NCBI RefSeq assembly: GCF_963921235.1
Contig: NC_086097.1
Span: 163,744,001-163,808,000, forward strand
Length of the DNA stretch: 64,000 nucleotides
Direction of reading: 5' to 3'
From: Mobula hypostoma
Taxonomy: Eukaryota
Shown: positions 2,743 to 50,101 of the stretch, piece after piece
Position numbering within the stretch: position 1 is the first letter of the stretch
How the letters are laid out: every line of letters begins with the position of its first letter
Notes under the pieces: model-generated
The model's database searches: none
What the model saw: only the letters and a program-made list of their open reading frames with translations
Told to the model about the DNA's origin: nothing
Translations under genes and position numbers: made by a program

Positions 2743-2842
2743 TAGTCCTGGCGAAGGGTCTCGGCCCGAAACGTCAACTGCACCTCTTCCTAGAGATGCT
2801 GCCTGGCCTGCAGCGTTCACCAGCAACTTTGATGTGTGTTTC
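2743..2842 (+). mobile_element. Isolated Penelope 3' terminal fragment with a mutated hammerhead core
   Basis: TAGTC-CTGGCGA-AGGGTCTCGGCCC-GAAACGTC-AACTG followed by GATGCTGCCTGGCCTGCAGCGTTCACCAGC, matching 14794-14890. Confidence 0.8.
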
Positions 2843-4179: not shown

Positions 4180-4640
4180 CTACTCCCTCCCTCTTCTTAT
4201 GCTTCCCATTCCTTATTCTGGTTTCCCCTTCACCCGTTCACCACCTTACTTGCCCATCACCTCTGAGGTGAGTTACCCTCCACCTTTCCTTTCTTCCATG
4301 GTCCTCTGTTCTATCCTATCAGATTCCCAAATTCCTTCTCCTTTAGCCCTTTGCCCTTTACCTTTTCCACCTATCATCTCTCAGCCTCTTATTTTATTCC
4401 CTGCTCACCCACCTACCTTTCCACTCACCTGGATTCAACTACCACCTGCCAGCTTGTACTCTTCCCCCGTGCCCACCTTCTTGTTCTGGCTTCCTCCTTC
4501 TTTCTTTCCAGTCCTGATGAAGGATCTCAGCGCAAAACGTCAACCCTTTATCCTCCTCTATAGATGCTGCTTGACTTGCTGAGTTCTGCCAACATTTTGT
4601 GTGTGTTGCTCAAGATTTTCAGTATTTGCCATATCGCTTG
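4180..4640 (+). mobile_element. Penelope-like 3' region (older subfamily)
   Basis: Pyrimidine-rich tract, then CAGTC-CTGATGA...AAAACGTC at 4509-4541 and the GATGCTGC...TGCTGAGTTC tail. Confidence 0.7.
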
Positions 4641-6969
4641 CATCTAGAGATGGCGTTGGTCTTTTTTTAATTGTCTAGATATGGGTTTTATTTGATTCCA
4701 ATGACAAGCCAGGAAAATTTTGCCACTTGATTTGAGTCTTAGAATATTGAAGCTGTATCTGAGCTGAGTTTTGGAAAGTTCTATATAATTGATCCTATTC
4801 TTTTACTTTTCCACAGAGTACTGCTAATATTCACTCTTCAGTGTAGATCCATTTTCTTTTGATAATTACATTAGAATTTGCTTCCTGTACTTTTACTATC
4901 TTGGATTCCAGACTATAATAACACAGTGAGTAAAAAAAAATTCTCACCTCTCCCAGAACTTATTTCTGATTATCTTAAGCCTCATCTCTATTACACCCTT
5001 TGCAAGTGAAAATCATTTTATCTAGCTACTTAGAAACAATCTTCATCATTTTGAGTACCTTGTTAAATCTATTCTTCAGGAAAATTGTCCCACTAGCTCC
5101 AGTCTTTTCATATGACAGGAACCTTTGATCCAGCACCATTGTTATAAATGTGCAATGTCTATTCAGCAGGGACACTGGAGTGTTGTGGCCAAAGGTTATG
5201 GAGCATTGTTAGACCGTGTCCTAGCAACAAATCCATACCTTCAGGAGAGGAAGCAGTGGGAAGAAAACAATTCAAAACATCAGTCAGCATTTACACTTAA
5301 AATATAGCTGTCACAACAGAAGTACATATGCCTACCATTTTTGAAATAAATTGGATTTAATTGTGACCATTGTGCTTCTAACAAAGATATATTTTAAATA
5401 TTTTAAATTGCTAGTTTAAATATTTTAAACTTCATAAAATTATCTTTCTTAAAATATCAACTGGTAGAAATTTTGAAAATTGGCATTTAAGTCAGTCCCA
5501 GAGCATTGGTAATCAAGAGTAATGAAGCAGTTGCTACAGCCTCATTACATAAAATGTCAATCTGATGCACACTTTTGAAGCAGCAAGTGGCTGATAATCA
5601 TTGAACAGTGTTGAAAGAAGCACAGAGAGAAACTAGCAGGAAAAGGGGAAAGTAACTGGTACTTTGCTCTTAAAATCTATTTGGTACAAGTAGCCATTTT
5701 GTTGCAAGGGTCGATCCAATTTGTGTAAACATAAACTTTAAAAAATTATTTATGTGCTTTTGAAATTCTTTGAGTCCGTTTGCAGTACATTCATTCAATT
5801 TGTCTATTAGATTCAAGTTTGTCTTACATTAAAGATCTATGTCAATGTTTAAAATTCATGTAAATGGGTTCTATTGCTGGTAGCAACATACAATTGTCTG
5901 AAGGAACTCAGCAGGTTGATCGTCATCTGGGAGGAAAGGACATGTCAATGTTTCAGACTGAAACACTGTATCAGGACTGTGGATGCAGAGTTTTGACTTG
6001 AAACATTAACAATAGCTTTTCTCTCACAGATACTGCTTGACCTGCTGAGTTTCCCTAGCAGATAGTTTGTTGCTCCAGATTCCAGCATCTGCACCCTCTT
6101 GTGTCACTATATTTGGTAGGCTCTGAGTTAATTTCATTTCCTTTGAGTTAAGGAAAGGAAATAAAACAAAAGATTATTCCAGGTAACTGTACATTCGCAT
6201 CTATTGGTAAAGGATTTACATTTGCGATACTCCCATTGCAAACACAGTTATGCAGAATTGGAATATTATCAATGATGCAGTTTAGAAACAAGGGCAGCTC
6301 AAGCAGGAGTTCACAGAGAGAGAGGTCAGGGTGGGGTGGGGAAGCATGAGTTTAGTTACTATCTGGACTGCTGAGGAATTTAAATTCAAGTAGCTAAATA
6401 AAAGTCTCAGTACAGCACAAAGTAGCCCTCAATACCTCGAGATTCAGGAGACAGATGATGGAATCTAGAGCAACAACAACCTGCTGGAACTCAACAGGTA
6501 CAGCAGCATCTGTTGGGGGAAGGAGCTTTTAGCAGTTTAGGTCAAAACTCTGGTCTGGTCTGTAAGTGACTCTAGCCTCTTAATGTGTTTATTACCTGGC
6601 TCAGTTCAGTAGTGGTAGAGATGAAGGGTAAATTCAGGACGTGTAGCTATGTTCATGTTCTATAATTTAATAACTAAATGAAATTTTACTTCCTGACTGT
6701 AAACTGTGAACATTACTTAAAAAGTACAAAGAGCATCTCCCTTCCAGTCAATAAGGCCATGAAAGAGAAGCACAATCTCACTGTTTTTCACTTTACTCCT
6801 TCAATGCCAACACTTGCCACCAATTCATCATAGTCCTTGAACTGGTTGGCTTATGAGTCTATATCAGAGGGCAAATTATTTTGTTGCTATAGGTTTATTA
6901 TTATCACGAGTACCAAAATACAGTGAAACGCTTGTCTGCATACAGTCAATACAGATCATATCACTGGTT

Positions 6970-7315
6970 AAACAGCTGACGTTTCTAGATGAGACCATAC
7001 TTCAGGACTTGAAAAGAAGGGGAATGAAGTCAGAATGAAAAGATGCAGGGAGGGGAAAGAAGATAGCCAGAAGGTGATTGGTGAAGCCAGGGGAAGGGGG
7101 AAAGGTAAAGGGCTGGTGAAGAGGGAATCTGATAGGAGAGTAGACCATAGGAGATAGGGAAGGAGGAGGGGACCCAGGGGAGGTAATAAACAGGTGAGAA
7201 GAGATAAGAGGCTAGAGTGGGCAATATAATAGGAGGGGAGGAGGAAGAAATGTTTTTTACTGGACAACAAAATCTTTATTCATGTTATCTGGTTGGAGTC
7301 TACCCAGACAGAATA
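6970..7315 (-). mobile_element. Penelope-like 3' region
   Basis: Purine-rich on the + strand; degenerate hammerhead at about 6973-7010; GIY-YIG C-terminal remnant near 7280-7310. Confidence 0.65.
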
Positions 7316-12180: not shown

Positions 12181-13390
12181 TCTTCCTTTTCGCAGTGGGA
12201 AGCTCGGGTGAACATGGGTGTTGGGGAAATGGAGGAGGTGCAGGTGCGGGCAGCATCAATAGTGGAGGAAGGGAAACCACGTTCTCTGAAGAGGGAGGAC
12301 CTGTCTGATGTCCAGGAAAGGAAACCCATATCCAGGAAACAGGTTGCAGCAGAGATGAAAGAACTGAAGAAAGAGAATAACATTTTTATAGGAGACAGGG
12401 TGGGAAGGGGTATAGTCATGATAACTGTGGGATTCAGTATGCTTATAAAAGATGTCAGTCGACAGCTTGTCTCTTGAGATTGAGACAGAGAAATTGAGAA
12501 AAGGGTGGGAGGAGACAGAAATGGGCCAAGTGAATTTATGGACAGGATGGAAGTTGGAGGCAAAGTTGATGAAATTGATGAGCTCAGCATGGGTGCATGA
12601 AGCAGCATCAATGCAGTTGTCACTGTAGCAGAGGAAGAGTTGGGGAGCATTACTGAGGAAGGCTTGGGACATTGACTGTTCTACATACCCAGTGAATAGG
12701 CATGCATCCCTGGGGTCTATCCTGGTGCCAATGGCTACCCCTTGAGTCTGAAAAAAGTGGGAGGAGCCGAAGGAAAAATTGTTGAGAGGTGAGGACCAGT
12801 TCTGCCTGTTGGTGATGGATGTGTTGGAAAGAAACTGGTTGGTTCCTTTATTGAGAAAGAACCAGAGAGCTTCAAGCCCTTCTTATTGGGGATAAAATTG
12901 TATAGAGACATGATGAAAAGGAGGCAGTCAAGGCGAGGGAAATGCAAGTTAGTGAGGAGATGGAGACCATGAGGGGTGTTACGGATGTAAGTGGGAAGGG
13001 ACTGAACCAAGAGCGATAGAATGGAGTAGAGATAAGAGGACACAAGTTCAGTGGGGCACGAGCAGGCAGAGAGAATAGGCCTATCTGGACAGGCAGGTTT
13101 GTGGATCTTGGATAGGAGATAAAAGTGAACAGTGTGAGGTAAGGGAACTATGGGTTTGGTTGCAGTAGATGGGAGTTCTCCAGTGTTGATAAGGTCACTG
13201 GTGTCAGAGATGGTTTTCTGATGGTCTGGAGTGGAGTCCCCTTCAAGGGGTAGGTCTGAGGAGGTGTCTGAGAGTTGCTGCCTGGCCTCCACAAGGTAGA
13301 GATCAGTGTGCCACACTACAACAGCACCCCACTTTGCGGGTTTGATGGTCAGGTTGGGGATTGATGCAGAGAGAGTGGAGGGCAGGCAAT
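12181..13390 (-). mobile_element. Degenerate Penelope-like RT fragment inserted in a CR1
   Basis: Minus-strand ORFs with KIHKPACPDRPILSACSCPTEL and FINFASNFHP, homologous to the 26677 ORF. Confidence 0.85.
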
Positions 13391-13697
13391 TTCTTGCGAC
13401 AGGTGGTTAGTTTCTGCCTAGAGGGTTCTGAAGGCTAATACATTAGATATATTTGGAGTGGAGCAAGATAATGGGGTGGGGGGTGCATGGAGGCTCTGTG
13501 AATCTGCCATGAAACAGGAGTTGAAGCCTTGGCTAGATCAGCCATGATCATAGTGAATGGCTAGACAGGTGTGAGGGGCTGAGTGGTCTACTGCTGCTCC
13601 TATTTTCTAGCATTTTTGGAAGAGAGGGACAGTAGACTTCCTTCACTCAAAAACGAAATGAGTTTTTACAAGAGTCTGGTGGCTTCCAGATTACCAT

Positions 13698-14925
13698 TAT
13701 TCCTCCGTCTCTGCCGCATCTGCTCTCAGGATGAGGCTTTTCATTCCAGGACGAGGGAGATGTCCTCCTTTTTTAAAGAAAGGGCTTCCCTTCCTCCACC
13801 ACCGACTCTGCTCTCATACACATCTCCCCCATTTCAAGCACATCTGCTCTCACTCCATCCTCCCGCCACCCCACTAGGAATAGGGTTCCCCTTGTCCTCA
13901 CCTACCACCCCACCAGCCTCCAAGTCCAACATATTATTCTCCGTAACTTCCGCCACCTCCAACGGGATCCCACCACTAAGCACATCTTTCTCTCCCCCCC
14001 TCCCCCCGCTTTCCGCAGGGATCGCTCCCTACGCGACTCCCTTGTCCATTCGTCCCCCCCAACCCTCCCCACCGATCTCCCTCCTGGCACTTATCCTTGT
14101 AAGTGGAACAAATGCTACACATGCCCTTACACTTCCTCCCTTACCACCATTCAGGGCCCCAAACAGTCCTTCCAGGTGAGGCGACACTTCACCTGTGAGT
14201 CGGCTGGGGTGATATACTGAGTCTGGTGCTCCCGATGTGGCCTTCTATATATTGGTGAGACCCGACGCAGATCGTTTCGCTAAACACCTACGCTCTGTCC
14301 GCCAGAGAAAGCAAGATCTCCCAGTGGCCACACATTTTAATTCCACGTGCCAGTCCCATTCCCATTCTGATATGTCTATCCACGGCCTCCTCTACTGTAA
14401 AGAGGAAGCCACACTCAGGCTGGAGGAACAACACCTTGTATTCTGTCAGGGTAGCATCCAACCTGATGGCATGAACATTGATTTCTCAAACTTCCACTAA
14501 TGCCCCCCCCCCCCGTACCCCATCCCTTATTTATTTATATACACGTTCTTTTTCTCTCTCTCTTTTTTCTTCCTCTGTCCCTCTCACTTTACCCATTGCC
14601 CATCCTCTGGGTTTTCCCCCCCTCCCCCTTTTCTTTCTCCCTAGGCCTCCTGTCCCATGATCCTCTCATATCCCTTTTGCCAATCAACTATCCAGCTCTT
14701 GGCTCCATCCCTCCCCCTCCTGTCTTCTCCTATCATTTTGGATCTCCCCCTCCCCCTCCCACTTTCAAATCTCTTACTAGCTGTTCCTTCAGTTAGTCCT
14801 GATGAAGGGTCTCGGCCCGAAACGTCGACTGTACCTCTTCCTAGAGATGCTGCCTGGCCTGCTGTGTTCACCAGCAACTTTGATGTGTGTGGCTTGAATT
14901 TCCAGCATCTGCAGATTTCCTCGTG
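13698..14925 (+). mobile_element. Penelope-like element 3' portion (same family as 26694-28656), frameshifted
   Basis: Close nucleotide similarity to about 27460-28656; GIY-YIG remnants; same 3' terminal region. Confidence 0.9.
14794..14831 (+). ncRNA. Minimal type I hammerhead ribozyme motif (intact core)
   Basis: TAGTC-CTGATGA-A-GGG(TCTCGG)CCC-GAAA-CGTC^GACTG: stem I TAGTC/GACTG, conserved CUGANGA and GAAA boxes, stem II, loopless palindromic stem III (ACGT), GUC cleavage triplet ending at 14826. Confidence 0.8.
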
Positions 14926-15209
14926 TTTACCATTATTCCCAGTAACTTTTTATTGTGCATTTATTTAGTTAATGGTGTTTACGTTTCTCAGGTGTCATGC
15001 TGGGCTTTGAACAGAAATTTAGTCTGGATTCAGATTACAACTGCTGCTCCCCAAATGATCTCTGCTGAGCCAAGACCAGAGCACAATTGGTCATTTCACC
15101 GCATCACTGCACCTTAATGGCATTTGCACTCACTGTACTTAAAGGCAGGAATGAGAACTGTGATAAATTTTGAAGGCTGCATTTACACTTACAATACAAT
15201 GGTCACAGA

Positions 15210-15814: not shown

Positions 15815-15989
15815 CGGCACAATGGACATGACACACCTGTGAAGGAGACCAAAGTGTTGAACCACCGTCGATTCGTAGCTACCTTCATGGTGGCTAACAC
15901 CATTAAGAGTGACAGTGACCGCTATCGTTGTGTGATTGAATCAGACAGAGGCTCCGGGGTGTCCAACTATGCAGAGTTAATTGTGAAAG
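15815..15989 (+). CDS. PTPRT: Next coding exon (175 bp) of the same phosphatase; C-terminal part of the Ig domain
   Basis: Acceptor ...gtcctcttcAG at 15813-15814; donor GTTAGT at 15990. Phase 0 join with the previous exon gives [58 protein letters not shown], with the NHRRF, YRC and [13 protein letters not shown] motifs. Not present in the supplied ORF track. Confidence 0.85.
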
Positions 15990-20858: not shown

Positions 20859-21625
20859 GTAATACACACAAAATGCTGGAGGAACTCAGCACGCCAGGCA
20901 GCATCTATGGAAAAGAGTAAACAGTCAATATTTCAGGCTGAGACTCTTCATTAGAACTGGAAAAAGAGAGATTAGAAGTCAGAGTAAGAAGTTGGGGAAG
21001 GAGAGGAAGTGTACAAGGTAGTAGGTGATAAGTGAAACCTAGAGAGGGGGAGGGGTGAAGTGAAGAGCTGGGAAGTTGACTGGTGAAACAGATAAAGGGC
21101 TGGAGAAGTGGGGACGTGACTTAAGAAGATTGAGGCCATGGAAGAAAGGGAAGGAGAGGGAGCACCAGAGGGAGTTGATGGGCAGGTAGGGGGATAAGGT
21201 GAGAAAGAGGGAAATGGGAATGGCGAATGTTGAAGGAGAAGGAAGGGGGCAATTGCCAGAAGTTCGAGAAATCGATGTTCATGCCATCAAGTTGGAGACT
21301 ACCCAGATGAAGTATAAGGTGTTGCTCCTCCAACCTGAGTTGGCCATATCGCAACAGTAGAGGAGGCTGCTGGAGGAGCAACACCTTGTATTACGCCGCG
21401 ATGAGGCCACACTCAGGTTGTACTTCTCACACTACCTTGTACTTCTTCCTCTCCTCCCCCCACCTTCTTACTCTGACTTCTAATCTCTTTTTCCCAGTAC
21501 TGATGAAAGGTCTTGGCCCAAAACATTGACTGTTCACTCCTTTCCATAGATGCTGCCAGGCCTGCTGAGTTCCTCCAGCATTTTATGTGTATTACTTTGA
21601 TTTCCAGCATCTGCAGATTCTCTCT
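20859..21625. mobile_element. Penelope-like element with inverted terminal duplication
   Basis: About 165-bp inverted arms (about 20860-21022 and 21430-21597), each with a degenerate hammerhead; minus ORF RLEEQHLILHLGSLQLDGMNIDFSNF. Confidence 0.8.
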
Positions 21626-25345: not shown

Positions 25346-26693
25346 CTTTTTGCTCTAATTGCAGCTTGCATGATGTGTTTACCTTCTCATTACAGGGAGG
25401 AGAATTTTGTTTTTCCTATACTTTGAGGATGTTCTCATCAAGTGAAAAGAAAACAAAGTAATTCAGAAAATAAAAATAGTGGGATAATCATCATAATGGG
25501 AGTGCTATATTACCCAATCAAAATGTTCAAAATTTTAAATGTGATATTATAAGGTGATTTAGAAAATAGAAGCTAACATGGATAATTAACTTCAAGGAGG
25601 ACTTTATATTACCCGATCAAAGTGTGAAAAAATGCGAAGGATAATGAACTGCAAGGAGAGAAGCCATTAAGCTGGAAAGAGTGCAGAGGAAATTAATGAG
25701 GATATTGCCAGGACTCAAGGGGCTGAGTTATGGAGAGAGCTTGAGTAGGTTGGGACTTTTCAGATTGGAGTGTAGGAAAGTGAGGGATGATCTTAAGAGG
25801 AATATAAAATTATGAGGACATAGATAGTGATTCTACACAATCTGCTTTCAAGGGTTGAGGAATCAAGCACTAGAGGACATGAATTTAAGGTGGTAATACC
25901 CAGCAAGTGGTTAGTATATGCAATGAGCTGTCAGAGGAAGTGGTTGAAGCATGTGCATTAACAACATTTAAAAAGGTAGTTGGACAGGTATAGGGATAGG
26001 AAAGGTTTAGGAAGATATGGGTCAAATGGGAATAGGTTAGAGTGGAATATTGGTCAGCATAGACCAAAATTTATAATCAAAGGAGGTAATTTATGTGTCA
26101 CCATATACTGCTCTGACATTCATTTTCTTGTGGGCATTCACAACAGAACAAAGAATAACAAGCAACCAGTGTTCAAAAGAAGTCAAACTGCCCCAAAGCA
26201 GTAAATAAATAAATAATGCTGGAACATGAGTTGTAGAGTCCTTGAACATGAGTCTATTGATTGTGTTCAGTCATCAGTTCAGTATTGTGAGTGAAGTTGT
26301 CCACGTTGGTTCAGGAGCCTGAAGGTTGACAGGTAATAACTGTTCCGAAACCTGGTGGTATGGAACCTAAGGCTCATGTTCCTCTTTCTGATGGTAGCAG
26401 TGAAAAGAGAGCATGGCCTGGATGGAGGGGTTCCTTGATAATAGATGCTGCTTTCTTGTAGCAGGAGGGCTTTTTTTTGTGATAACCTGTACTGTAAACA
26501 CCAGTTTTTATACACTTTTTCATTCCTGGGTGCTGGTGTTTCCATCCTAGGCTGTGATACAGCAAGCCAGGATATTCTTCTCAGCCATTCTGCAGAAGTT
26601 TGTCTAAGTTTTTGATCCCATGCTGAACCTTTGCAAACTTCTAAGAAAGTAGAGATGCTGCTTTACCTTCTTTGAAATGACACTAATGTGCTA

Positions 26694-28656
26694 CCTCCTA
26701 CCCAAGATCCACAAACCTGCCTGTCCTGGCCGACCTATTGTCTCAGCTTGCTCCTGCCCCACCGAACTCATTTCTGCATACCTCGACACTGTTTTATCAC
26801 CCCTTGTTCAATCCCTTCCGACCTATGTTCGTGACACATCTCACGCTCTTAAACTTTTCGATGATTTTAAGTTCCCTGGCCCCCACCGCTTTATTTTCAC
26901 CATGGATGTCCAGTCCCTATATACTTCCATCCCCCATCAGGAAGGTCTCAAAGCTCTACGCTTCTTTTTGGATTCCAGACCTAATCAGTTCCCCTCTACC
27001 ACCACTCTGCTCCGTCCAGCGGAATTAGTCCTTACTCTTAATAATTTCTCCTTTGGCTCCTCCCACTTCCTCCAAACTGAAGGTGTAGCTATGGGCACCC
27101 CTATGGGTCCTAGCTATGCCTGCCTTTTTGTTGAGTTTGTGGAACAATCTATGTTCCGTGCCTATTCTGGTATCTGTCCCCCACTTTTCCTTCGCTACAT
27201 CGACGACTGCATTGGCGCTGCTTCCTGCACGCATGCAGAACTCGTTGACTTTATTAACTTTGCCTCCAACTTTCACCCTGCCCTCAAGTTTACCTGGTCC
27301 ATTTCCGACACCTCCCTCCCCTTTCTAGATCTTTCTGTCTCTGTCTCTGGAGACAGCTTATCCACTGATGTCTACTATAAGCCTACTGACTCTCACAGCT
27401 ATCTGGACTATTCCTCTTCTCACCCTGTCTCTTGCAAAAACGCCATCCCCTTCTCGCAATTCCTCCCTCTCCGCCGCATCTGCTCTCAGGATGAGGCTTT
27501 TCATTCTAGGATGAGGGAGATGTCTTCCTTTTTTAAAGAAAGGGGCTTCCCTTCCTCCACTATCAACTCTGCTCTTAAACACATCTCCCCCATTTCACGT
27601 ACATCTGCTCTCACTCCATCCTCCCGCCACCCCACTAGGAATAGGGTTCCCCTGGTCCTCAGCTACCACCCCACCAGCCTCCGGGTCCAACATATTATTC
27701 TCCGTAACTTCCGCCACCTCCAACGGGATCCCACCACTAAGCACATCTTTCCCTCCCCCCCTCTCTCTGCATTCCGCAGGGATCGCTCCCTACACAACTC
27801 CCTTGTCCATTCGTCCCCCCCATCCCTCCCCACTGATCTCCCTCCTGGCACTTATCCGTGTAAGCGGAACAAGTGCTACACATGCCCTTACACTTCCTCC
27901 CTTACCACCATTCAGGGCCCCAAACAGTCTTTCCAGGTGAGGCAACACTTCACCTGTGAGTCGACTGGGGTGATATACTGCGTCCGGTGCTCCCGATGTG
28001 GCCTTTTATATATTAGCGAGACCCGACGCAGACTGGGAGACCGCTTTGCTGAACATCTACGCTCTGTCCGCCAGAGAAAGCAGGATCTTCCAGTGGCCAC
28101 ACATTTTAATTCCACATCCCATTCCCATTCTGACATGTCTATCCACAGCCTCCTCTACTGTAAAGATGAAGCCACACTCAGGTTGGAGGAACAACACCTT
28201 ATATTCCGTCTGGGTAGCCTCCAACCTGATGGCATGAACATCGACTTCTCTAACTTCCGCTAAGGCCCCACCTCCCCCTCGTACCCCATCTGTTACTCAT
28301 TTTTATGCACACATTCTTTCTCTCACTCTCCTTTTTCTCCCTCTGTCCCTCTGAATATACCTCTTGCCCATCCTCTGGGTCCCCCCCCTTGTCTTTCTTC
28401 CCGGACCTCCTGCCCCATGATCCTCTTGTATCCCCTTTTGCCTATCACCTGTCCAACTCTTGGCTCTATCCCTCCCCCTCCTGTCTTCTCCTATCATTTT
28501 GGATCTCCCCCTCCCCCTCCAACTTTCAAATCCCTTACTCACTCTTCCTTCAGTTAGTCCTGACGAAGGGTCTCGGCCTGAAACGTCGACTGCACCTCTT
28601 CCTACAGATGCTGCTTGGCCTGCTGCGTTCACCAGCAACTTTGATGTGTGTTGCTT
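26694..28656 (+). mobile_element. 5'-truncated young Penelope-like retroelement (RT + GIY-YIG endonuclease)
   Basis: Open frame to 28263 with RT motifs (MDVQSLYTSIP, GVAMGTPMGP, RYIDD) and GIY-YIG-type endonuclease (GVIYCVRC..C.LLYISET...RFAEH...GMN); 11-bp TSD CTAATGTGCTA at 26683-26693 and 28657-28667. Confidence 0.92.
28555..28592 (+). ncRNA. Minimal type I hammerhead ribozyme motif (intact core)
   Basis: TAGTC-CTGACGA-AGGGTCTCGGCCT-GAAA-CGTC^GACTG, about 290 nt after the Penelope ORF stop; predicted cleavage after 28587. Confidence 0.8.
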
Positions 28657-28904
28657 CTAATGTGCTAGTCCTAAGATAGACCCTCTGACATGATAATGCC
28701 CAGGAATTTTAAGTTAGTATTCCACCTCCAATTCTCTAATGAGCACTCGCTTATGAACCCCTGATTTCTTCCTCCTGCAGTCAATAATTAGCTTTTTGGT
28801 TTTGCTGATGTTGAATTGAAAGGTTGTTGTTCTGGTACCATTCAACCAGATTTTCAATCTCCCTCCTATATGCTGAATCTCACCATGTTTAATTTGGCCA
28901 CAGC

Positions 28905-29135
28905 GGTTTCAGCCCAAGACTCTTCATCAGGACTGTAAAGGAACGGGGAGGAAGCCAGAATATGAAGGTGGGGGAAAAGGGAAGGAATGCAAACTCGAAG
29001 GTGATAGGTGAAGCCAGGCAAAGGGGGAGGGAGCATGGAGGTGATAGGTAGAAAATGTGAATGGCTGAGCAAGAAGGAACCAGATAGGAGATGAGAGTCG
29101 GCCATAGGAGAAAGGGAAGGAGGAGGGGCATGATC
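28905..29135 (-). mobile_element. Penelope-like 3' fragment
   Basis: Minus strand CAGTC-CTGATGA-AGAGTCTTGGGCT-GAAA at 28907-28935, truncated just after GAAA. Confidence 0.65.
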
Positions 29136-33912: not shown

Positions 33913-34539
33913 TGTGTTAAGCTTTTGGGACAAATATGAATAAATAACAAGATGGTAAATGAATGTTAAGATCCTCAAAGCCAAGCTTCATGCTGTGTTT
34001 TTATTAAGGAAAGTAAACACCAGCTGCGTTGTTCAATACATATTCAATTTCTTCCTGGACCATAATAGTTGAAATATGCAGCCATTGTCTTTCCTCTAAG
34101 ATTTATGTATGTTATTGTTTCAAATGTATACATAGAAGATCACAGAGGAATCAATATGTATGGTGTGGCTGGTCAACACCGTGTAATACACCAGCTGTTA
34201 CACTTTTAGCATGGTAATATTTTTCTCCCCCTCTCTCTCTCCACCTACTCTCTGTTATTAGATCTTTCCACTATGGTAAATTCTTTTCTTTCCTGCGATA
34301 TTTTGTCCTGTATCTTAGTTTTTCTTTTTTAATTTTTCTTTTTTTTTAGTTTTTCATTTAGTCTTCTTTTTCTGTCCCTTCAAACGTCTTTCTTGGGCTG
34401 AAACGTCTGGCAGGAAGTTCTGATGCTGGGTTTCCACCCAAAGCGTCGGCAGTTTCTTTACCCCTGTAGTTGCTGCTCAACCTGCTGAATTGCTTCGGAG
34501 ATTGCCACCCTGAATGTCTTCCAAGAAAATGATTCAGAG

Positions 34540-45240: not shown

Positions 45241-46100
45241 TGTTACGTACCCCGTAACTGGGTTGCCAAACCAGCAGAAATGGATCACTCAGTTGGAGTC
45301 TGGAGTACTAGAACTAAGAAAGTTTTATTAAAGAAACAAGCAACACAGTAATCGAAAGGATAATAAATGCAACAATTCAACAATGATAACCACACATGTG
45401 CACAGAATTAAAATAACAGCATCAATCAAGCTCTATCGTTGTCTAGGGGTAAATCACCAATTTCAAAATGACTCAAAGTTCAGTCCAGTTAGTAGTTCAG
45501 TTCGCAGTAATCGTTGCCATGGCGATGGACAAGGTGGGGGAAGAGAGACAGAGAGAACAGGAACAACTCATCATTCAGCACAGCTTCACTCACAGATCAG
45601 CGGGATGGCTCACAAGCAACTTTTGGGCGGGTCCTTGGTGATGTCACCTGAGGTCACCGACTGTGACCCCTCCTCCAGATGCGGTCGATCCTCTGCAGTG
45701 AACCCGGCACCCAGGCAAGGGCGGACACACACCGGGTTCCCGCTGATCGTACCTTTCCACCCTTGTCGTTGTCTGGCACTTCTCACCCACTCGTGAGAGG
45801 CGCACCGCTTCCAGGGTCTCGTTACCTCGGGTGGCGTGTGTGTCGCCTTAGCGAACCTGTCCCTTTTTATCCCCCTGCTGGGGTATCGCCTGTCCATCAC
45901 TTCAAACAGTTCAAGGTTCAAAGAGGGGAGCCGCTCCAGACAGCTCTCTCTCCCACATCCCTTCATTACACATCTCCAGACGCTGCTCCATTGTTCCTTA
46001 TCTCTCCTTCCCCTGAGGGCAGGTGGCAGACCAACTGCTGATGCCACTGATGCTAGCCCAGGCCAGCAAACATCTTAATTTTATGTGTATTCTCGTAACA
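45241..46100 (-). repeat. 3' LTR (860 bp)
   Basis: Direct repeat of 49240-50101; adjacent to the polypurine tract; minus-strand AATAAA at 45324-45329. Confidence 0.95.
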
Positions 46101-46272: not shown

Positions 46273-49140
46273 TTAATAATCCCTTAGACCAGGCTCCAAC
46301 TCAGCAAACTTCATAGTGGCCAAAAACACTGATGAATTGCGACCAATGTAACCTCTCATTTGGTTTTGTCCCGGACCACAATAACAAGGGTCGTCCCATT
46401 CCGACTCAGTTTTCTCTCGCAAGGGCTTAGTAGGAGGGGGACGGGTATTGACCGCAGAGTTATTGCAAAACTTCCTGCAGTACCCCACCATCTCCAAAAG
46501 CCTTCTGAGGGCCCTCTTGTCTGTCGGGGTTGGGAGGTCAGCGATAGCCTGCACTGTAGCTTGCATCACTACCAGCTGCCCCTGTGTCACCACAATTCCC
46601 AGGTAAGTGACCTTTGTGTGGCCGAATTCATTTTTTTCAAGGTTCACTATCAAACTGGCTTCAGACAGCCGTATTAAATTGCCAATACACACCTCTGTGT
46701 TCATCAGCCCTTTAGTCACTGAATTACTCAAAAAATATGGGTGTTGTTTACTTGGCCGCCCTATTGTAACCACAATCACCCAACGTCCCAGTTCTTTGCA
46801 TTTCCTCGGGACAATCAAACACATGGGTGCGAGTCGTTTAATTACTCCTTCGGGGATTAAGGGAGAGACCTTATCAGTAGACCTGGCCAAAACAATAGCC
46901 TTCTCCCATCTGACCGATCCCATCCTAATCTTTTCAAAATGGTTTTTTCCTCTTAGCAGGGGGCCCCTAGCTTCATTGATTTCCACGCTAACACCGACCA
47001 GGTTTGTTAGCATATCAAAAACCGGTGACCGTCTCAGTTCGCGTCGGTCATGATCAATAACATTTTTCCCCCTGGGCAGCCGGTAAATCTCTTTCATGAT
47101 TCCACCAACTGTTTCCTCCAGCACCGCAAAATGTCCACCGGGGGGTACCTCGTGGGCCATGTTAAAAACCTCATCCCCATAACTCTTTTGCACCACCCCC
47201 CACTCCTCATCTGCGGATACTGTCCTTGATTTCCCTTTCTTCCTTAGCACTTCCTCATCCGCACAATAGCCTACTAGTTCCCTTGTCAAGGCTGTGTCAG
47301 AGAGAGCGGTCTCTGCCAAAACCATCAGCCCCTCGTCTCGCTCCTGCGTCTGCACAAATTCTTTCCTGGCTACTGCTACGTCTGTCCCAACTCCCTCACT
47401 ACCACTTGTCTCACTACCCTCTTTCTTTCCATTTTCTACCCCCTTCTCGTACAAGGTTGGCAAAAATGTTTCAGCTAAATTCACTATCGCGGGCGGGGCC
47501 TCAATGCTGGCAGGCTGACCTGTCAATCTCACGACTGGGAACACGATTCCTCCGGCGATGTCATTACCGAGCAAGACTTCCACGTCTTTCATCGGTAATT
47601 CGGACCTCACCCCGATCGTGACTAGTCCAGAGACCAGGTTGCTCTGTAAATGTATCTGGTGCAAAGGGACTGACTCTGTCCCTTCCCCAACACCTTTGAC
47701 CTCTACCTCCCCAGTCTGGGTCTCTGAGCTAAACTCTAATACACTCTTCAGTATTAGTGACTGACACGCTCCCGTGTCTCTCCAGATCCGCACTGGAACT
47801 GGTTTTAACCTCTCCTTCACTGACACCAGTCCGGCCGAGATAAACCTCTCGCGCCCTTCCTGGACTTTTTCAGACCTGTCCTTCCCTAGCGGTTCGCTTA
47901 ACAGCTCAATACAGCCATTCAAAATTTCCGCTTTTCCTTTCCCCGTCTCCTTCCTTGGGGCAAAGCACCTGGACGCAAAGTGTCCGACTTTCCCACAATT
48001 ATAACAGACGACCCCAGGAGACTTCCTACCAGACTGCTCCCGGTCTACCTTATCCTTTTCACTAGTCCCCGGCTTACTTTCTGACTTTTCCGGCGGACTC
48101 TCCCCGCCGTCCTGACTACCCTTCTGGTAGCCTTTACTCGGGGCAACCTTCATTTTATGCGTCAACGCATACTCATCCGCTAACTTAGCAGTTGCGGCTA
48201 ACGTGGCTGCCTCTTTCTCATCGAGGTAGGGTCTCATACCCTCAGGGACACAACCTTTAAACTGCTCAATCAGAATCAGTTGCAGCAGTCTGTCATAATC
48301 CCCCTCTACCCCTTTCGAGGCGCACCAACGCTCACAATATGTTTGCATCTCACGAGCAAACTCCAAATACGTGCGGTCCCACCGCTTCCTCGCATTCCGG
48401 AACCTCTGCCGGTATGCCTCCGGGACCAACTCATAAATCCTGAGGATGGCCTCCTTCACCACCTCATACTTCTGGGCATCTTCCGCGGATAAAGCTGAGT
48501 AAGCTTGTTGGGCCTTCCCTTTCAGTACACTCTGAAGTAAAACAACCCACTTATCCCTCGGCCATTCCTGACTTATAGCCACCTTTTCGAAGTGGAGAAA
48601 GTACCGATCCACATCGGTATCGTCAAATGGGGGAACCAGCCTAACCTCCTGGGTCGCCCGGAACCCTCCACCTTGGTTCGGCACGAGCCCCTGCTCGGCC
48701 CTTATCTTTAACTTCTCCAGCTCAAATTCCCTTTCCCTCTGTTTCTCCTCTCTCTCCATCTGTCTGTCCCTCTCTCTCTCTTCTCTCTCCAACTGTCTTT
48801 CTTTCTCCTGCCTTTCTAACTCTCTCTCCTGCCTTTCTAACTGCTTCTCTTCGTGTTCTAACTGCCGTACCCGGAACTCGTGCTCGAGTCTCAGTTTTTC
48901 AAGCTGTACCTGTACCGCGTCTCCAGCAGGTTTTTCAATAGACACCTCCCCCAGCTCACCTTGGGGAAACACACCTTTAGATACATAGTGCTCTACAATA
49001 GCTCTGTGTATCTCCTCTCTCCTCATTGTCGACTTCACCTTGGCAAGATTCAACCGTTTGGCCACAGCTATCAATTCCGATTTCCTGGCATCCTCTAATG
49101 CCTCCAAGGTCGGCGCCTTTATAAATTCCTCAACCTCCAT
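46273..49140 (-). CDS. 955-aa Gag-protease polyprotein fused in frame to degenerate integrase and RT remnants
   Basis: Coiled-coil E/R/Q region; SCAN-like capsid (VPPFDDTDVDRYFLHFEK...YELVPEAYRQRFR); zinc knuckle CYNCGKVGHFASRC; aspartic protease RDTGACQS...LLGND; integrase N-terminal remnant AHEVPPGGHF; RT C-terminal remnant VTYLG...ALRRLLEMVGYCRKFC. No YxDD, DDE core or RNase H recognisable. Confidence 0.88.
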   Translation of the reverse strand: MEVEEFIKAPTLEALEDARKSELIAVAKRLNLAKVKSTMRREEIHRAIVEHYVSKGVFPQGELGEVSIEKPAGDAVQVQLEKLRLEHEFRVRQLEHEEKQLERQERELERQEKERQLEREERERDRQMEREEKQREREFELEKLKIRAEQGLVPNQGGGFRATQEVRLVPPFDDTDVDRYFLHFEKVAISQEWPRDKWVVLLQSVLKGKAQQAYSALSAEDAQKYEVVKEAILRIYELVPEAYRQRFRNARKRWDRTYLEFAREMQTYCERWCASKGVEGDYDRLLQLILIEQFKGCVPEGMRPYLDEKEAATLAATAKLADEYALTHKMKVAPSKGYQKGSQDGGESPPEKSESKPGTSEKDKVDREQSGRKSPGVVCYNCGKVGHFASRCFAPRKETGKGKAEILNGCIELLSEPLGKDRSEKVQEGRERFISAGLVSVKERLKPVPVRIWRDTGACQSLILKSVLEFSSETQTGEVEVKGVGEGTESVPLHQIHLQSNLVSGLVTIGVRSELPMKDVEVLLGNDIAGGIVFPVVRLTGQPASIEAPPAIVNLAETFLPTLYEKGVENGKKEGSETSGSEGVGTDVAVARKEFVQTQERDEGLMVLAETALSDTALTRELVGYCADEEVLRKKGKSRTVSADEEWGVVQKSYGDEVFNMAHEVPPGGHFAVLEETVGGIMKEIYRLPRGKNVIDHDRRELRRSPVFDMLTNLVGVSVEINEARGPLLRGKNHFEKIRMGSVRWEKAIVLARSTDKVSPLIPEGVIKRLAPMCLIVPRKCKELGRWVIVVTIGRPSKQHPYFLSNSVTKGLMNTEVCIGNLIRLSEASLIVNLEKNEFGHTKVTYLGIVVTQGQLVVMQATVQAIADLPTPTDKRALRRLLEMVGYCRKFCNNSAVNTRPPPTKPLREKTESEWDDPCYCGPGQNQMRGYIGRNSSVFLATMKFAELEPGLRDY

Positions 49141-49210
49141 TTCTGCTGTTTGTCTTTTCTTTCTTTCGGGAATTTTAACCCAATCAATTTACTCCGTCCC
49201 AAATTTAGCG

Positions 49211-49239: not shown

Positions 49240-50101
49240 TGTTACGTACCCCGTAACTGGGTTGCCAAACCAGCAGAAATGGATCACTCAGTTGGAGTCT
49301 GGAGTACTAGAACTAAGAAAGTTTTATTAAAGAAACAAGCAACACAGTAATCGAAAGGATAATAAATGCAACAATTCAACAATGATAACCACACATGTGC
49401 ACAGAATTAAAATAACAGCATCAATCAAGCTCTATCGTTGTCTAGGGGTAAATGACCAATTTCAAAATGACTCAAAGTTCAGTCCAGTTAGTAGTTCAGT
49501 TCGCAGTAATCGTTGCCATGGCGATGGACAAGGTGGGGGAAGAGAGACAGAGGGAACAGGAACAACTGATCATTCAGAGCACTGCTTCACTCACAGACTG
49601 GCGAGATGGCTCACAAGCAACTTTTGGGCGGGTCCTTGGTGATGTCACCTGAGGTCACCGACTGTGACCCCTCCTCCAGATGCGGTCGATCCTCTGCAGT
49701 GAACCCGGCACCCAGGCAAGGGCGGACACACACCGGGTTCCCGCTGATCGTACCTTTCCACCCTTGTCGTTGTCTGGCACTTCTCACCCACTCGTGAGAG
49801 GCGCACCGCTTCCAGGGTCTCGTTACCTCGGGTGGCGTGTGTGTCGCCTTAGCGAACCTGTCCCTTTTTATCCCCCTGCTGGGGTATCGCCTGTCCATCA
49901 CTTCAAACAGTTCAAGGTTCAAAGAGGGGAGCCGCTCCAGACAGCTCTCTCTCCCACATCCCTTCATTACACATCTCCAGACGCTGCTCCATTGTTCCTT
50001 ATCTCTCCTTCCCCTGAGGGCAGGTGGCAGACCAACTGCTGATGCCACTGATGCTAGCCCAGGCCAGCAAACATCTTAATTTTATGTGTATTCTCGTAAC
50101 A
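49240..50101 (-). repeat. 5' LTR (862 bp)
   Basis: Direct repeat of 45241-46100; followed on the minus strand by the primer-binding site. Confidence 0.95.

Follow-up and report, generated by a model that had tools for sequence, protein, structure and literature searches.

The window, by which we mean the whole 64-kb stretch of DNA analysed herein, holds two 5′-truncated copies of a Penelope-like element, each with a minimal type I hammerhead ribozyme motif near its 3′ end (Table 1). At the first of these motifs the letters read as an earlier note on this DNA had claimed, with stem I, the core, GAAA, a palindrome and a GUC triplet, and with the cut predicted after C14826. Specifically, the 5′ strand of stem I (14794-14798) pairs with a 3′ strand at 14827-14831, and the core from C3 to A9 (14799-14805) is followed by a single extra A (14806, between positions 9 and 10.1), stem II (14807-14810 with 14815-14818), G12-A14 (14819-14821), the palindromic A15.1-C-G-U16.1 (14822-14825) and C17 (14826). 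The core C3-U4-G5-A6-N7-G8-A9, G12-A13-A14, A15.1-U16.1 and H17 is complete at 14794-14831, and the type I closure by a helix I of 4-5 bp and the extra base between 9 and 10.1 are present there as well. Stem II had been given as GGG/CCC; its three G-C pairs are in place, and a U-G wobble extends the stem from 3 to 4 bp, closed by a loop of 4 nt. Motif coordinates below take the predicted cut as the zero point, such that +1 is window position 14827 and -33 is 14794.

The motif at 28555, which had also been called intact, differs from that at 14794 only at N7 (14803) and 11.1 (14818), as described, but the word intact needs a qualifier here because the change at 11.1 turns the conserved G10.1-C11.1 pair, present at 14807/14818, into G-U. 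All six degenerate copies named previously were found, with 3 to 11 mismatches of 38, alongside two further ones at 34415 (+) and 5942-5979 (-). A profile search of the window returned 21 matches to the family, 13 on the forward and eight on the reverse strand.

Table 1. Coordinates of the Penelope-like copies, hammerhead motifs and host exon in the window.
Feature	Position	Strand	Basis or remark
Copy 1, 5′-truncated Penelope-like	13704-14926	+	89% identity to copy 2; tblastn: stops, frameshifts
Target-site duplication of copy 1, 13 bp	13691-13703 (left), 14927-14939 (right)	+	Flank sequence
Minimal type I hammerhead motif	14794-14831	+	Sequence, fold, descriptor match; predicted cut between 14826 and 14827
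Optional tail, ~33 nt	14896-14926	+	Two clusters of 3′ ends; not in copy 2
Copy 2, 5′-truncated Penelope-like	26694-28656	+	Open RT-linker-GIY-YIG frame, stop at 28263
Target-site duplication of copy 2, 11 bp	26683-26693 and 28657-28667		Flank sequence
Second hammerhead	28555-28592	+	C7 and G10.1-U11.1 variant, commonest young form
Short young copy	2743-2841	+	Starts exactly where stem I begins; A6G and G1.1A damage the core
Degenerate hammerhead, older subfamily	4509-4546	+	Sequence match
Degenerate hammerhead, older subfamily	6973-7010	-	Sequence match
Degenerate hammerhead, older subfamily	20922-20959	-	Sequence match
Degenerate hammerhead, older subfamily	21495-21532	+	Sequence match
Degenerate hammerhead without 3′ part	28898-28935	-	Sequence match
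Host exon, Ig domain, kappa/mu-type receptor tyrosine phosphatase	15815-15988	+	phmmer: PTPRK E 8e-18, PTPRM E 3e-15

Copy 1 comprises the broken end of an ORF (RT thumb, linker and GIY-YIG), a 3′ UTR/pseudo-LTR, the hammerhead, and the longer (about +102) form of the 3′ end with its tail. Its ORF stop ends at 14500, the hammerhead lying 293 bases behind it, and the broken frame shares 87% identity with the open frame of copy 2 (26653-28263) over the linker and GIY-YIG part. The open frame matched RVT_1/RT (PF00078, E 2e-6) and GIY-YIG (PF01541, E 0.05), both under Pfam's cut-offs; taken with that limit, a single ORF with RT followed by GIY-YIG is the arrangement of endonuclease-bearing Penelope-like elements. 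The motif had been placed at the end of the family; it is not at the very end of the element, as another 65-100 bases lie downstream of it. The 3′ ends of copies fall in two clusters, at about +64 to +69 and +101 to +107, and the optional tail, which is typical of Penelope-like insertions (10.1101/2021.04.23.441226, PMC11167929), has the sequence of the beginning of the next unit in tandem copies.

Among 20 long copies fetched with their flanks, L084, L088 and L071 were partial tandems with two hammerheads, spaced 3508, 3475 and 3044 bases apart, respectively, L071 having an internal deletion. The hammerhead is present in both pseudo-LTRs of these full-length tandem copies, with the likely start codon following the upstream cut by 137-141 bases. 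A 470-nt gap in L071 was considered as an intron and rejected, having no GT-AG ends and a short repeat at its borders. Many other long copies carry an inverted truncated partner. Partial tandems, inverted 5′-truncated partners and an optional tail of 30-40 bp are all encountered in this family, as in endonuclease-bearing Penelope-like elements. Additionally, a C-x4-C-x2-C stretch precedes the GIY-YIG domain in the RT-endonuclease linker, and we take its exact form to be that of the Neptune clade, to which the element, judged from this cysteine motif, likely belongs. An extra zinc-finger motif in the linker is described as a mark of that clade (10.1101/2021.04.23.441226). The assignment of the motif to the dimer-type minimal type I class of Penelope-like elements, made in the earlier note from the letters, is backed by its anatomy, the upstream RT/GIY-YIG frame, the tandem copies with two motifs, and conservation across subfamilies. 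The motif is genuine and its class correctly read, and any cleavage activity is predicted to be weak.

Copy 1 likely sits in sense orientation in the intron before the phosphatase exon. The intact cores at 14794 and 28555 are 13.8 kb apart, both on the strand of that exon, and pairing between them is conceivable in principle if a single pre-mRNA spans both. Back to back with copy 1 is an older, broken Penelope-like RT fragment (12226-13406, reverse strand, 70% identical), which is of a different subfamily and is not the inverted arm of copy 1. A long copy about 59 kb downstream (G000:C1:163829501; L022, L067) is 98% identical to copy 2 and has an identical start; the two are possibly a local duplication. 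Also in the window, on the reverse strand at 46273-49188, is a gag-like frame of 971 codons with SCAN and CCHC zinc-knuckle matches. It is flanked by repeats, at about 45600-46100 and 49600-50100, that look identical and the frames of which are identical; together with these repeats it is an LTR-type element.

The motif is far more abundant than chance. A 28-base core pattern had 56,169 matches in the 3.48-Gb genome, against none for the reversed control. The full structural descriptor had 51 matches in 1.464 Mb of genome versus 1, 0 and 2 in three shuffles, and 38 of the 51, versus none in the three shuffles, were palindromic at 15.2-16.2, as in Penelope-like hammerheads, which form no stable helix III as monomers. 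This sample comprised 140 stretches plus the window and was not strictly random, five stretches being at known matches and 20 flanking the window. It contained 84 young copies, which scales to ~200,000 genome-wide. Within the 64-kb window a loose core pattern was weak by comparison (14 matches against a shuffled mean of 6.8, with 2 of 100 shuffles reaching 14). Rfam returned nothing for the window at E<=1, but as the motif is without helix III, this does not argue against a hammerhead.

Conservation was assessed over five subfamilies defined by upstream sequence (45, 6, 10, 11 and 16 copies), 101 of the 189 copies falling outside them. All five majorities share the same base in 30 of the 37 columns of the motif, compared with 10 of 42 upstream of it, 3 of 16 in the spacer that follows and 34 of 56 beyond the spacer; because this last region is conserved too, conservation is not unique to the ribozyme. 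The catalytic unpaired positions C3, U4, G5, G8, A9, G12-A14, A15.1, U16.1 and C17 are invariant in the five majorities. Differences within the motif are confined to N7, loop II, 11.1 and an A6C change in subfamily S3, plus two more that represent CpG decay in old subfamilies. The excess conservation across copies that the earlier note had expected of a ribozyme is seen at the level of subfamilies, while the 84 young copies have none beyond CpG decay; as these are dead copies, none is expected among them, and the test belongs across subfamilies. Covariation of the stems, expected likewise, did not appear: in 114 older copies there was no two-sided signal (Fisher p 0.085, 0.28 and 0.43, confounded by CpG decay), and stem changes were one-sided only, namely U-G/C-G at the end of stem I and G-C/G-U at 10.1-11.1. 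The G10.1-U11.1 pair is the commonest young form (49 of 76 at 11.1). The change of A6 to C, a departure from the core, occurs in 10 of 10 copies of S3 (e.g., L134:597-700, L174:8504-8608, L183:3422-3527); A6C is a rare natural variant of the hammerhead core that reportedly lowers activity, of which some remains (PMC3088659, PMC7151607). In all five subfamilies two pyrimidine tracts ending in AG (GG in S2), candidate splice acceptors, lie behind the ribozyme, at +6 to +20 and about +75 to +88, in addition to one ahead of it; the +6 to +20 tract directly precedes an ATG, from which the young form reads 16 codons before a stop.

The best predicted monomer fold is an extended inactive hairpin of -11 kcal/mol that pairs G5-G8 with 15.2-17; in the common C7 form this pairing is perfect. 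The active, strand-swapped dimer is predicted at -16.7 kcal/mol for the 14794 form and -11.5 kcal/mol for the 28555 form, against about -22 kcal/mol for two inactive monomers, these being nearest-neighbour energies that leave out the tertiary contacts of the hammerhead core.

We then mapped where copies begin relative to the motif. The 5′ ends of the 84 young copies lie at -661 or further (20), between -616 and -125 (13), and between -71 and +9 (51, two of which are cut by a locus edge). Fourteen copies start at -33 to -31, and none at +1. The finding of 14 out of 43 ends at -33 to -31 has a binomial p of 1.8e-8, but the range was picked after viewing the data, so that the claim is carried by genome-wide junction counts. 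Here, a junction was four non-matching bases followed by 24-30 matching bases, counted at nine positions. For the C7/U11.1 form there were 70 junctions at -38, 337 at -36, 1073 at -32, 1162 at -31 and 310 at -28, and with a downstream anchor 119 at -3, 373 at +1, 157 at +2 and 114 at +4, the two sets having different denominators (about 45,000 and 65,000-100,000, by scaling). The first two paired bases of stem I therefore hold a pile-up of about 1,100 junctions each, against 70-337 nearby. All 20 loci fetched for -32/-31 were true junctions, of which 10 were with unique flank and 10 with an inverted partner. In contigs from 24 sequencing runs, two other organisms had loose ends at this stem I edge (28556-28557; 13, 22 and 3 contigs in the best-supported rows), although contigs are weak evidence that does not reveal where RNAs begin or end or whether they are expressed.

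The smaller excess at +1 is of mixed composition. The first 100 matches listed there included 23 inverted joins through stem I, 15 deletions from one GAC word to the other and roughly a dozen small indels, such that about half of those 100 belonged to microhomology or small-indel classes; the neighbouring positions contain such classes too, and about a twofold excess at +1 is left after the microhomology classes are removed. A separate pattern found 111 copies genome-wide with inverted arms joined exactly through stem I. Among +1 loci hand-picked outside the microhomology and indel classes, 18 of 20 were true junctions (seven with unique flank, 11 with an inverted partner). The deletions between GAC words (about 15 of 100 among the +1 matches listed) cleanly remove 26 bases of the ribozyme core. 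Single-base losses at the predicted cut seem commoner than loss of C+3: among the matches listed, G+1 alone is missing from about 27 of 100 at +2 and C17 from about 7 of 100 at +1, while C+3 has been lost in about 8 of 100 at +4. Such losses could stem from inexact rejoining of cut ends, from CpG repair or from a minor subfamily. Two further signatures were set aside. An extra G before -31, as from a cap, was found in about 55 of 100 matches listed, but also in about 32 of 70 at -38, and was dropped as not specific; AAGG before -31 (16 of 100 among the matches listed), considered as RT slippage, came from the inverted partner or apparently from the target in eight fetched loci. In a search largely outside subscription journals, we found no paper that maps the 5′ ends of copies onto a Penelope hammerhead.

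From these data we consider it probable that the motif is a minimal type I hammerhead, lying in a broken, truncated Penelope-like copy, that cuts rarely, as a dimer formed within a tandem transcript and probably with the aid of the element's own protein. The lone genomic copy is likely inert, since the predicted cutting needs a tandem transcript with two motifs. Within a master element arranged in tandem, a promoter in the pseudo-LTR would start transcription at about -32, around the first base of stem I in the upstream motif. The consensus of initiators is pyrimidine-purine, and the sequence at about -32 fits it. A promoter inside the pseudo-LTR has been shown for Drosophila Penelope (PMC2377424); at +28 to +32 of a start at -32 there was no match by eye to the downstream promoter element motif given in the accessible part of that paper. 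By analogy with PMC11167929, reverse transcription would then begin at roughly +69 or +102. On uncut RNA it would run off the 5′ end after 100-135 bases and give rise to the abundant short copies that resemble SINEs. A smaller share of the RNA may be cut at both motifs; this would create 5′ ends at the cut site and perhaps also circles of unit length or other, longer templates. Long copies, including both in the window, would require a template that extends past the ribozyme in the upstream direction, be it a circle after double cutting, as proposed in PMC4209133, or a read-through RNA.

We infer that the pile-up at the stem I edge reflects transcript starts at the edge of the ribozyme, and the excess at +1 rare cutting; both pile-ups hint at, and do not prove, cutting in living cells. 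More specifically, transcripts may start on the first ribozyme base, making the hammerhead 5′-terminal, and cutting at C17 of a fraction of the RNA in the germ line may have left about a thousand insertions that start at the cut, a reading we put forward only tentatively and with more doubt than belief. If true, it would constitute in vivo evidence of cleavage by a Penelope minimal hammerhead, with short copies derived from uncut linear RNA and long copies from cut and rejoined (circular) RNA. Counting against cutting are the lack of +1 starts among the 84 young copies, the missing two-sided covariation, the unfavourable dimer energies, the frequency of the G-U form and the A6C change of S3. 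The earlier note's reading is supported in part: the class it gave holds, whereas self-cleavage goes further than these data, published minimal hammerheads being inactive as monomers and weak as dimers (PMC4209133) or dependent on the protein of the element (PMC11167929).

The strongest competing explanation, which we nevertheless judge unlikely, is that the motif no longer cuts in this lineage and is kept as a structural or promoter element (a start site or a protein-binding hairpin), the pile-ups being products of RT stopping or folding back on an inactive hairpin. It accords with the inactive hairpin being the lowest-energy monomer, with the wide spread of A6C and G10.1-U11.1 subfamilies, and with the position of the main pile-up at the stem I edge, where cDNA completes an inverted repeat, as well as with the 111 arms joined exactly through stem I and with the success of Naiad elements, which thrive without a hammerhead (10.1101/2021.04.23.441226). 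However, it does not sit well with the invariance of the catalytic unpaired positions over five subfamily majorities, the residual activity of natural A6C variants (PMC3088659, PMC7151607), or the persistence of the +1 excess without the microhomology classes.

Very improbable is a spliceosomal origin of the common 5′ edge, which would then be a 3′ splice site of the kind seen in Drosophila Penelope instead of a transcription start. A pyrimidine tract followed by AG does end at -31 in five of five subfamilies, and in D. virilis an intron ends at the 5′ end of helix I (PMC4209133), but the 20 fetched junctions divide into inverted partners and unique flanks, some with target-site duplications, with no recurring upstream exon among them, and the contig joints shown (contigs being weak evidence) include no GT-AG joint. 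Finally, an independent SINE or retrozyme family that excises itself by its hammerhead and spreads alone is hardly credible: most young copies are 100-135 bases long with a common 5′ edge, and retrozymes derived from Penelope-like elements are reported in one chondrichthyan genome (bioRxiv 10.64898/2026.07.22.740005), but this reading is largely refuted, as the common edge lies at the start of stem I instead of the cut site, the 5′ ends scatter between -616 and +9, the short copies are identical in sequence to the ends of ORF-bearing copies, many are in inverted pairs with one arm tailed and one untailed, as in ordinary Penelope-like insertions (10.1101/2021.04.23.441226), and no head-to-tail arrays of short units are apparent in the sample's general match tables, which do not amount to a dedicated array search.

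Although the motif as such is ordinary, the role of the hammerhead in endonuclease-bearing Penelope-like elements is stated to be unclear (10.1101/2021.04.23.441226), and in the one study of mechanism insertion in vitro went ahead without it and no RNA ended at the cut (PMC11167929). With ~200,000 young copies, template ends can be mapped at single-base resolution, which is beyond the reach of small families, and the activity of the natural variants G10.1-U11.1, C7 and A6C can be compared with the success of each. Moreover, a single vertebrate genome contains tens of thousands of intact cores; many of them are likely intronic and in sense orientation, and two copies on the same pre-mRNA could there, in principle, pair.

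In 2014, Cervera and De la Pena (PMC4209133) described minimal hammerheads in pseudo-LTRs of Penelope-like elements from metazoans, among them the Xena, Poseidon and Neptune elements of fish and those of coelacanth and Xenopus; these were inactive as monomers and of low activity as dimers. The element herein resembles those in the accessible part of that paper in its type I layout, helix I of 4-5 bp, extra base between 9 and 10.1 and palindromic 15.2-16.2 without loop III, in having the motif in both pseudo-LTRs, and in occurring mostly as single, dispersed, truncated copies. It differs in its short stem II (4 bp), its commonest young form being G10.1-U11.1, and in one subfamily being A6C. Its 56,169 exact core matches exceed the 4,000-9,000 copies given for coelacanth and Xenopus, albeit by different search methods, and no shark, skate or ray is named in the accessible text of the paper or its one supplement file searched. 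The start site in Drosophila is well upstream of helix I (PMC4209133, PMC2377424).

The Poseidon element of Anolis carolinensis (Frangieh et al. 2024, PMC11167929) has protein-assisted hammerhead cleavage, and its ribozyme is dispensable for insertion in vitro. As in that element, the hammerhead here lies near the pseudo-LTR/ORF junction, inverted pairs occur, and there are two 3′ ends about 33 bases apart (the tail), matching two internal RT start sites. The Anolis ORF starts inside stem II, whereas here the likely start codon is about 139 bases behind the cut, and the linker here has a cysteine motif, as described for Neptune/Nematis, unlike Anolis Poseidon. Furthermore, the accessible part of PMC11167929 reports no RNA reads ending at the cut in Anolis, whereas the present element has a two- to threefold excess of genomic junctions at the cut site. 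Non-LTR retrozymes share the type I hammerhead and an origin from the pseudo-LTR of Penelope-like elements, but are head-to-tail short repeats with mostly canonical ribozymes (PMC7229834; bioRxiv 10.64898/2026.07.22.740005), while the motif here is at the end of an ORF-bearing element; copy 1 does not have the retrozyme layout of head-to-tail short repeats, each with a ribozyme and without an ORF. The kind of motif is therefore one already known since 2014 and published for vertebrate elements, to which the junction map and the subfamily variants are an informative addition.
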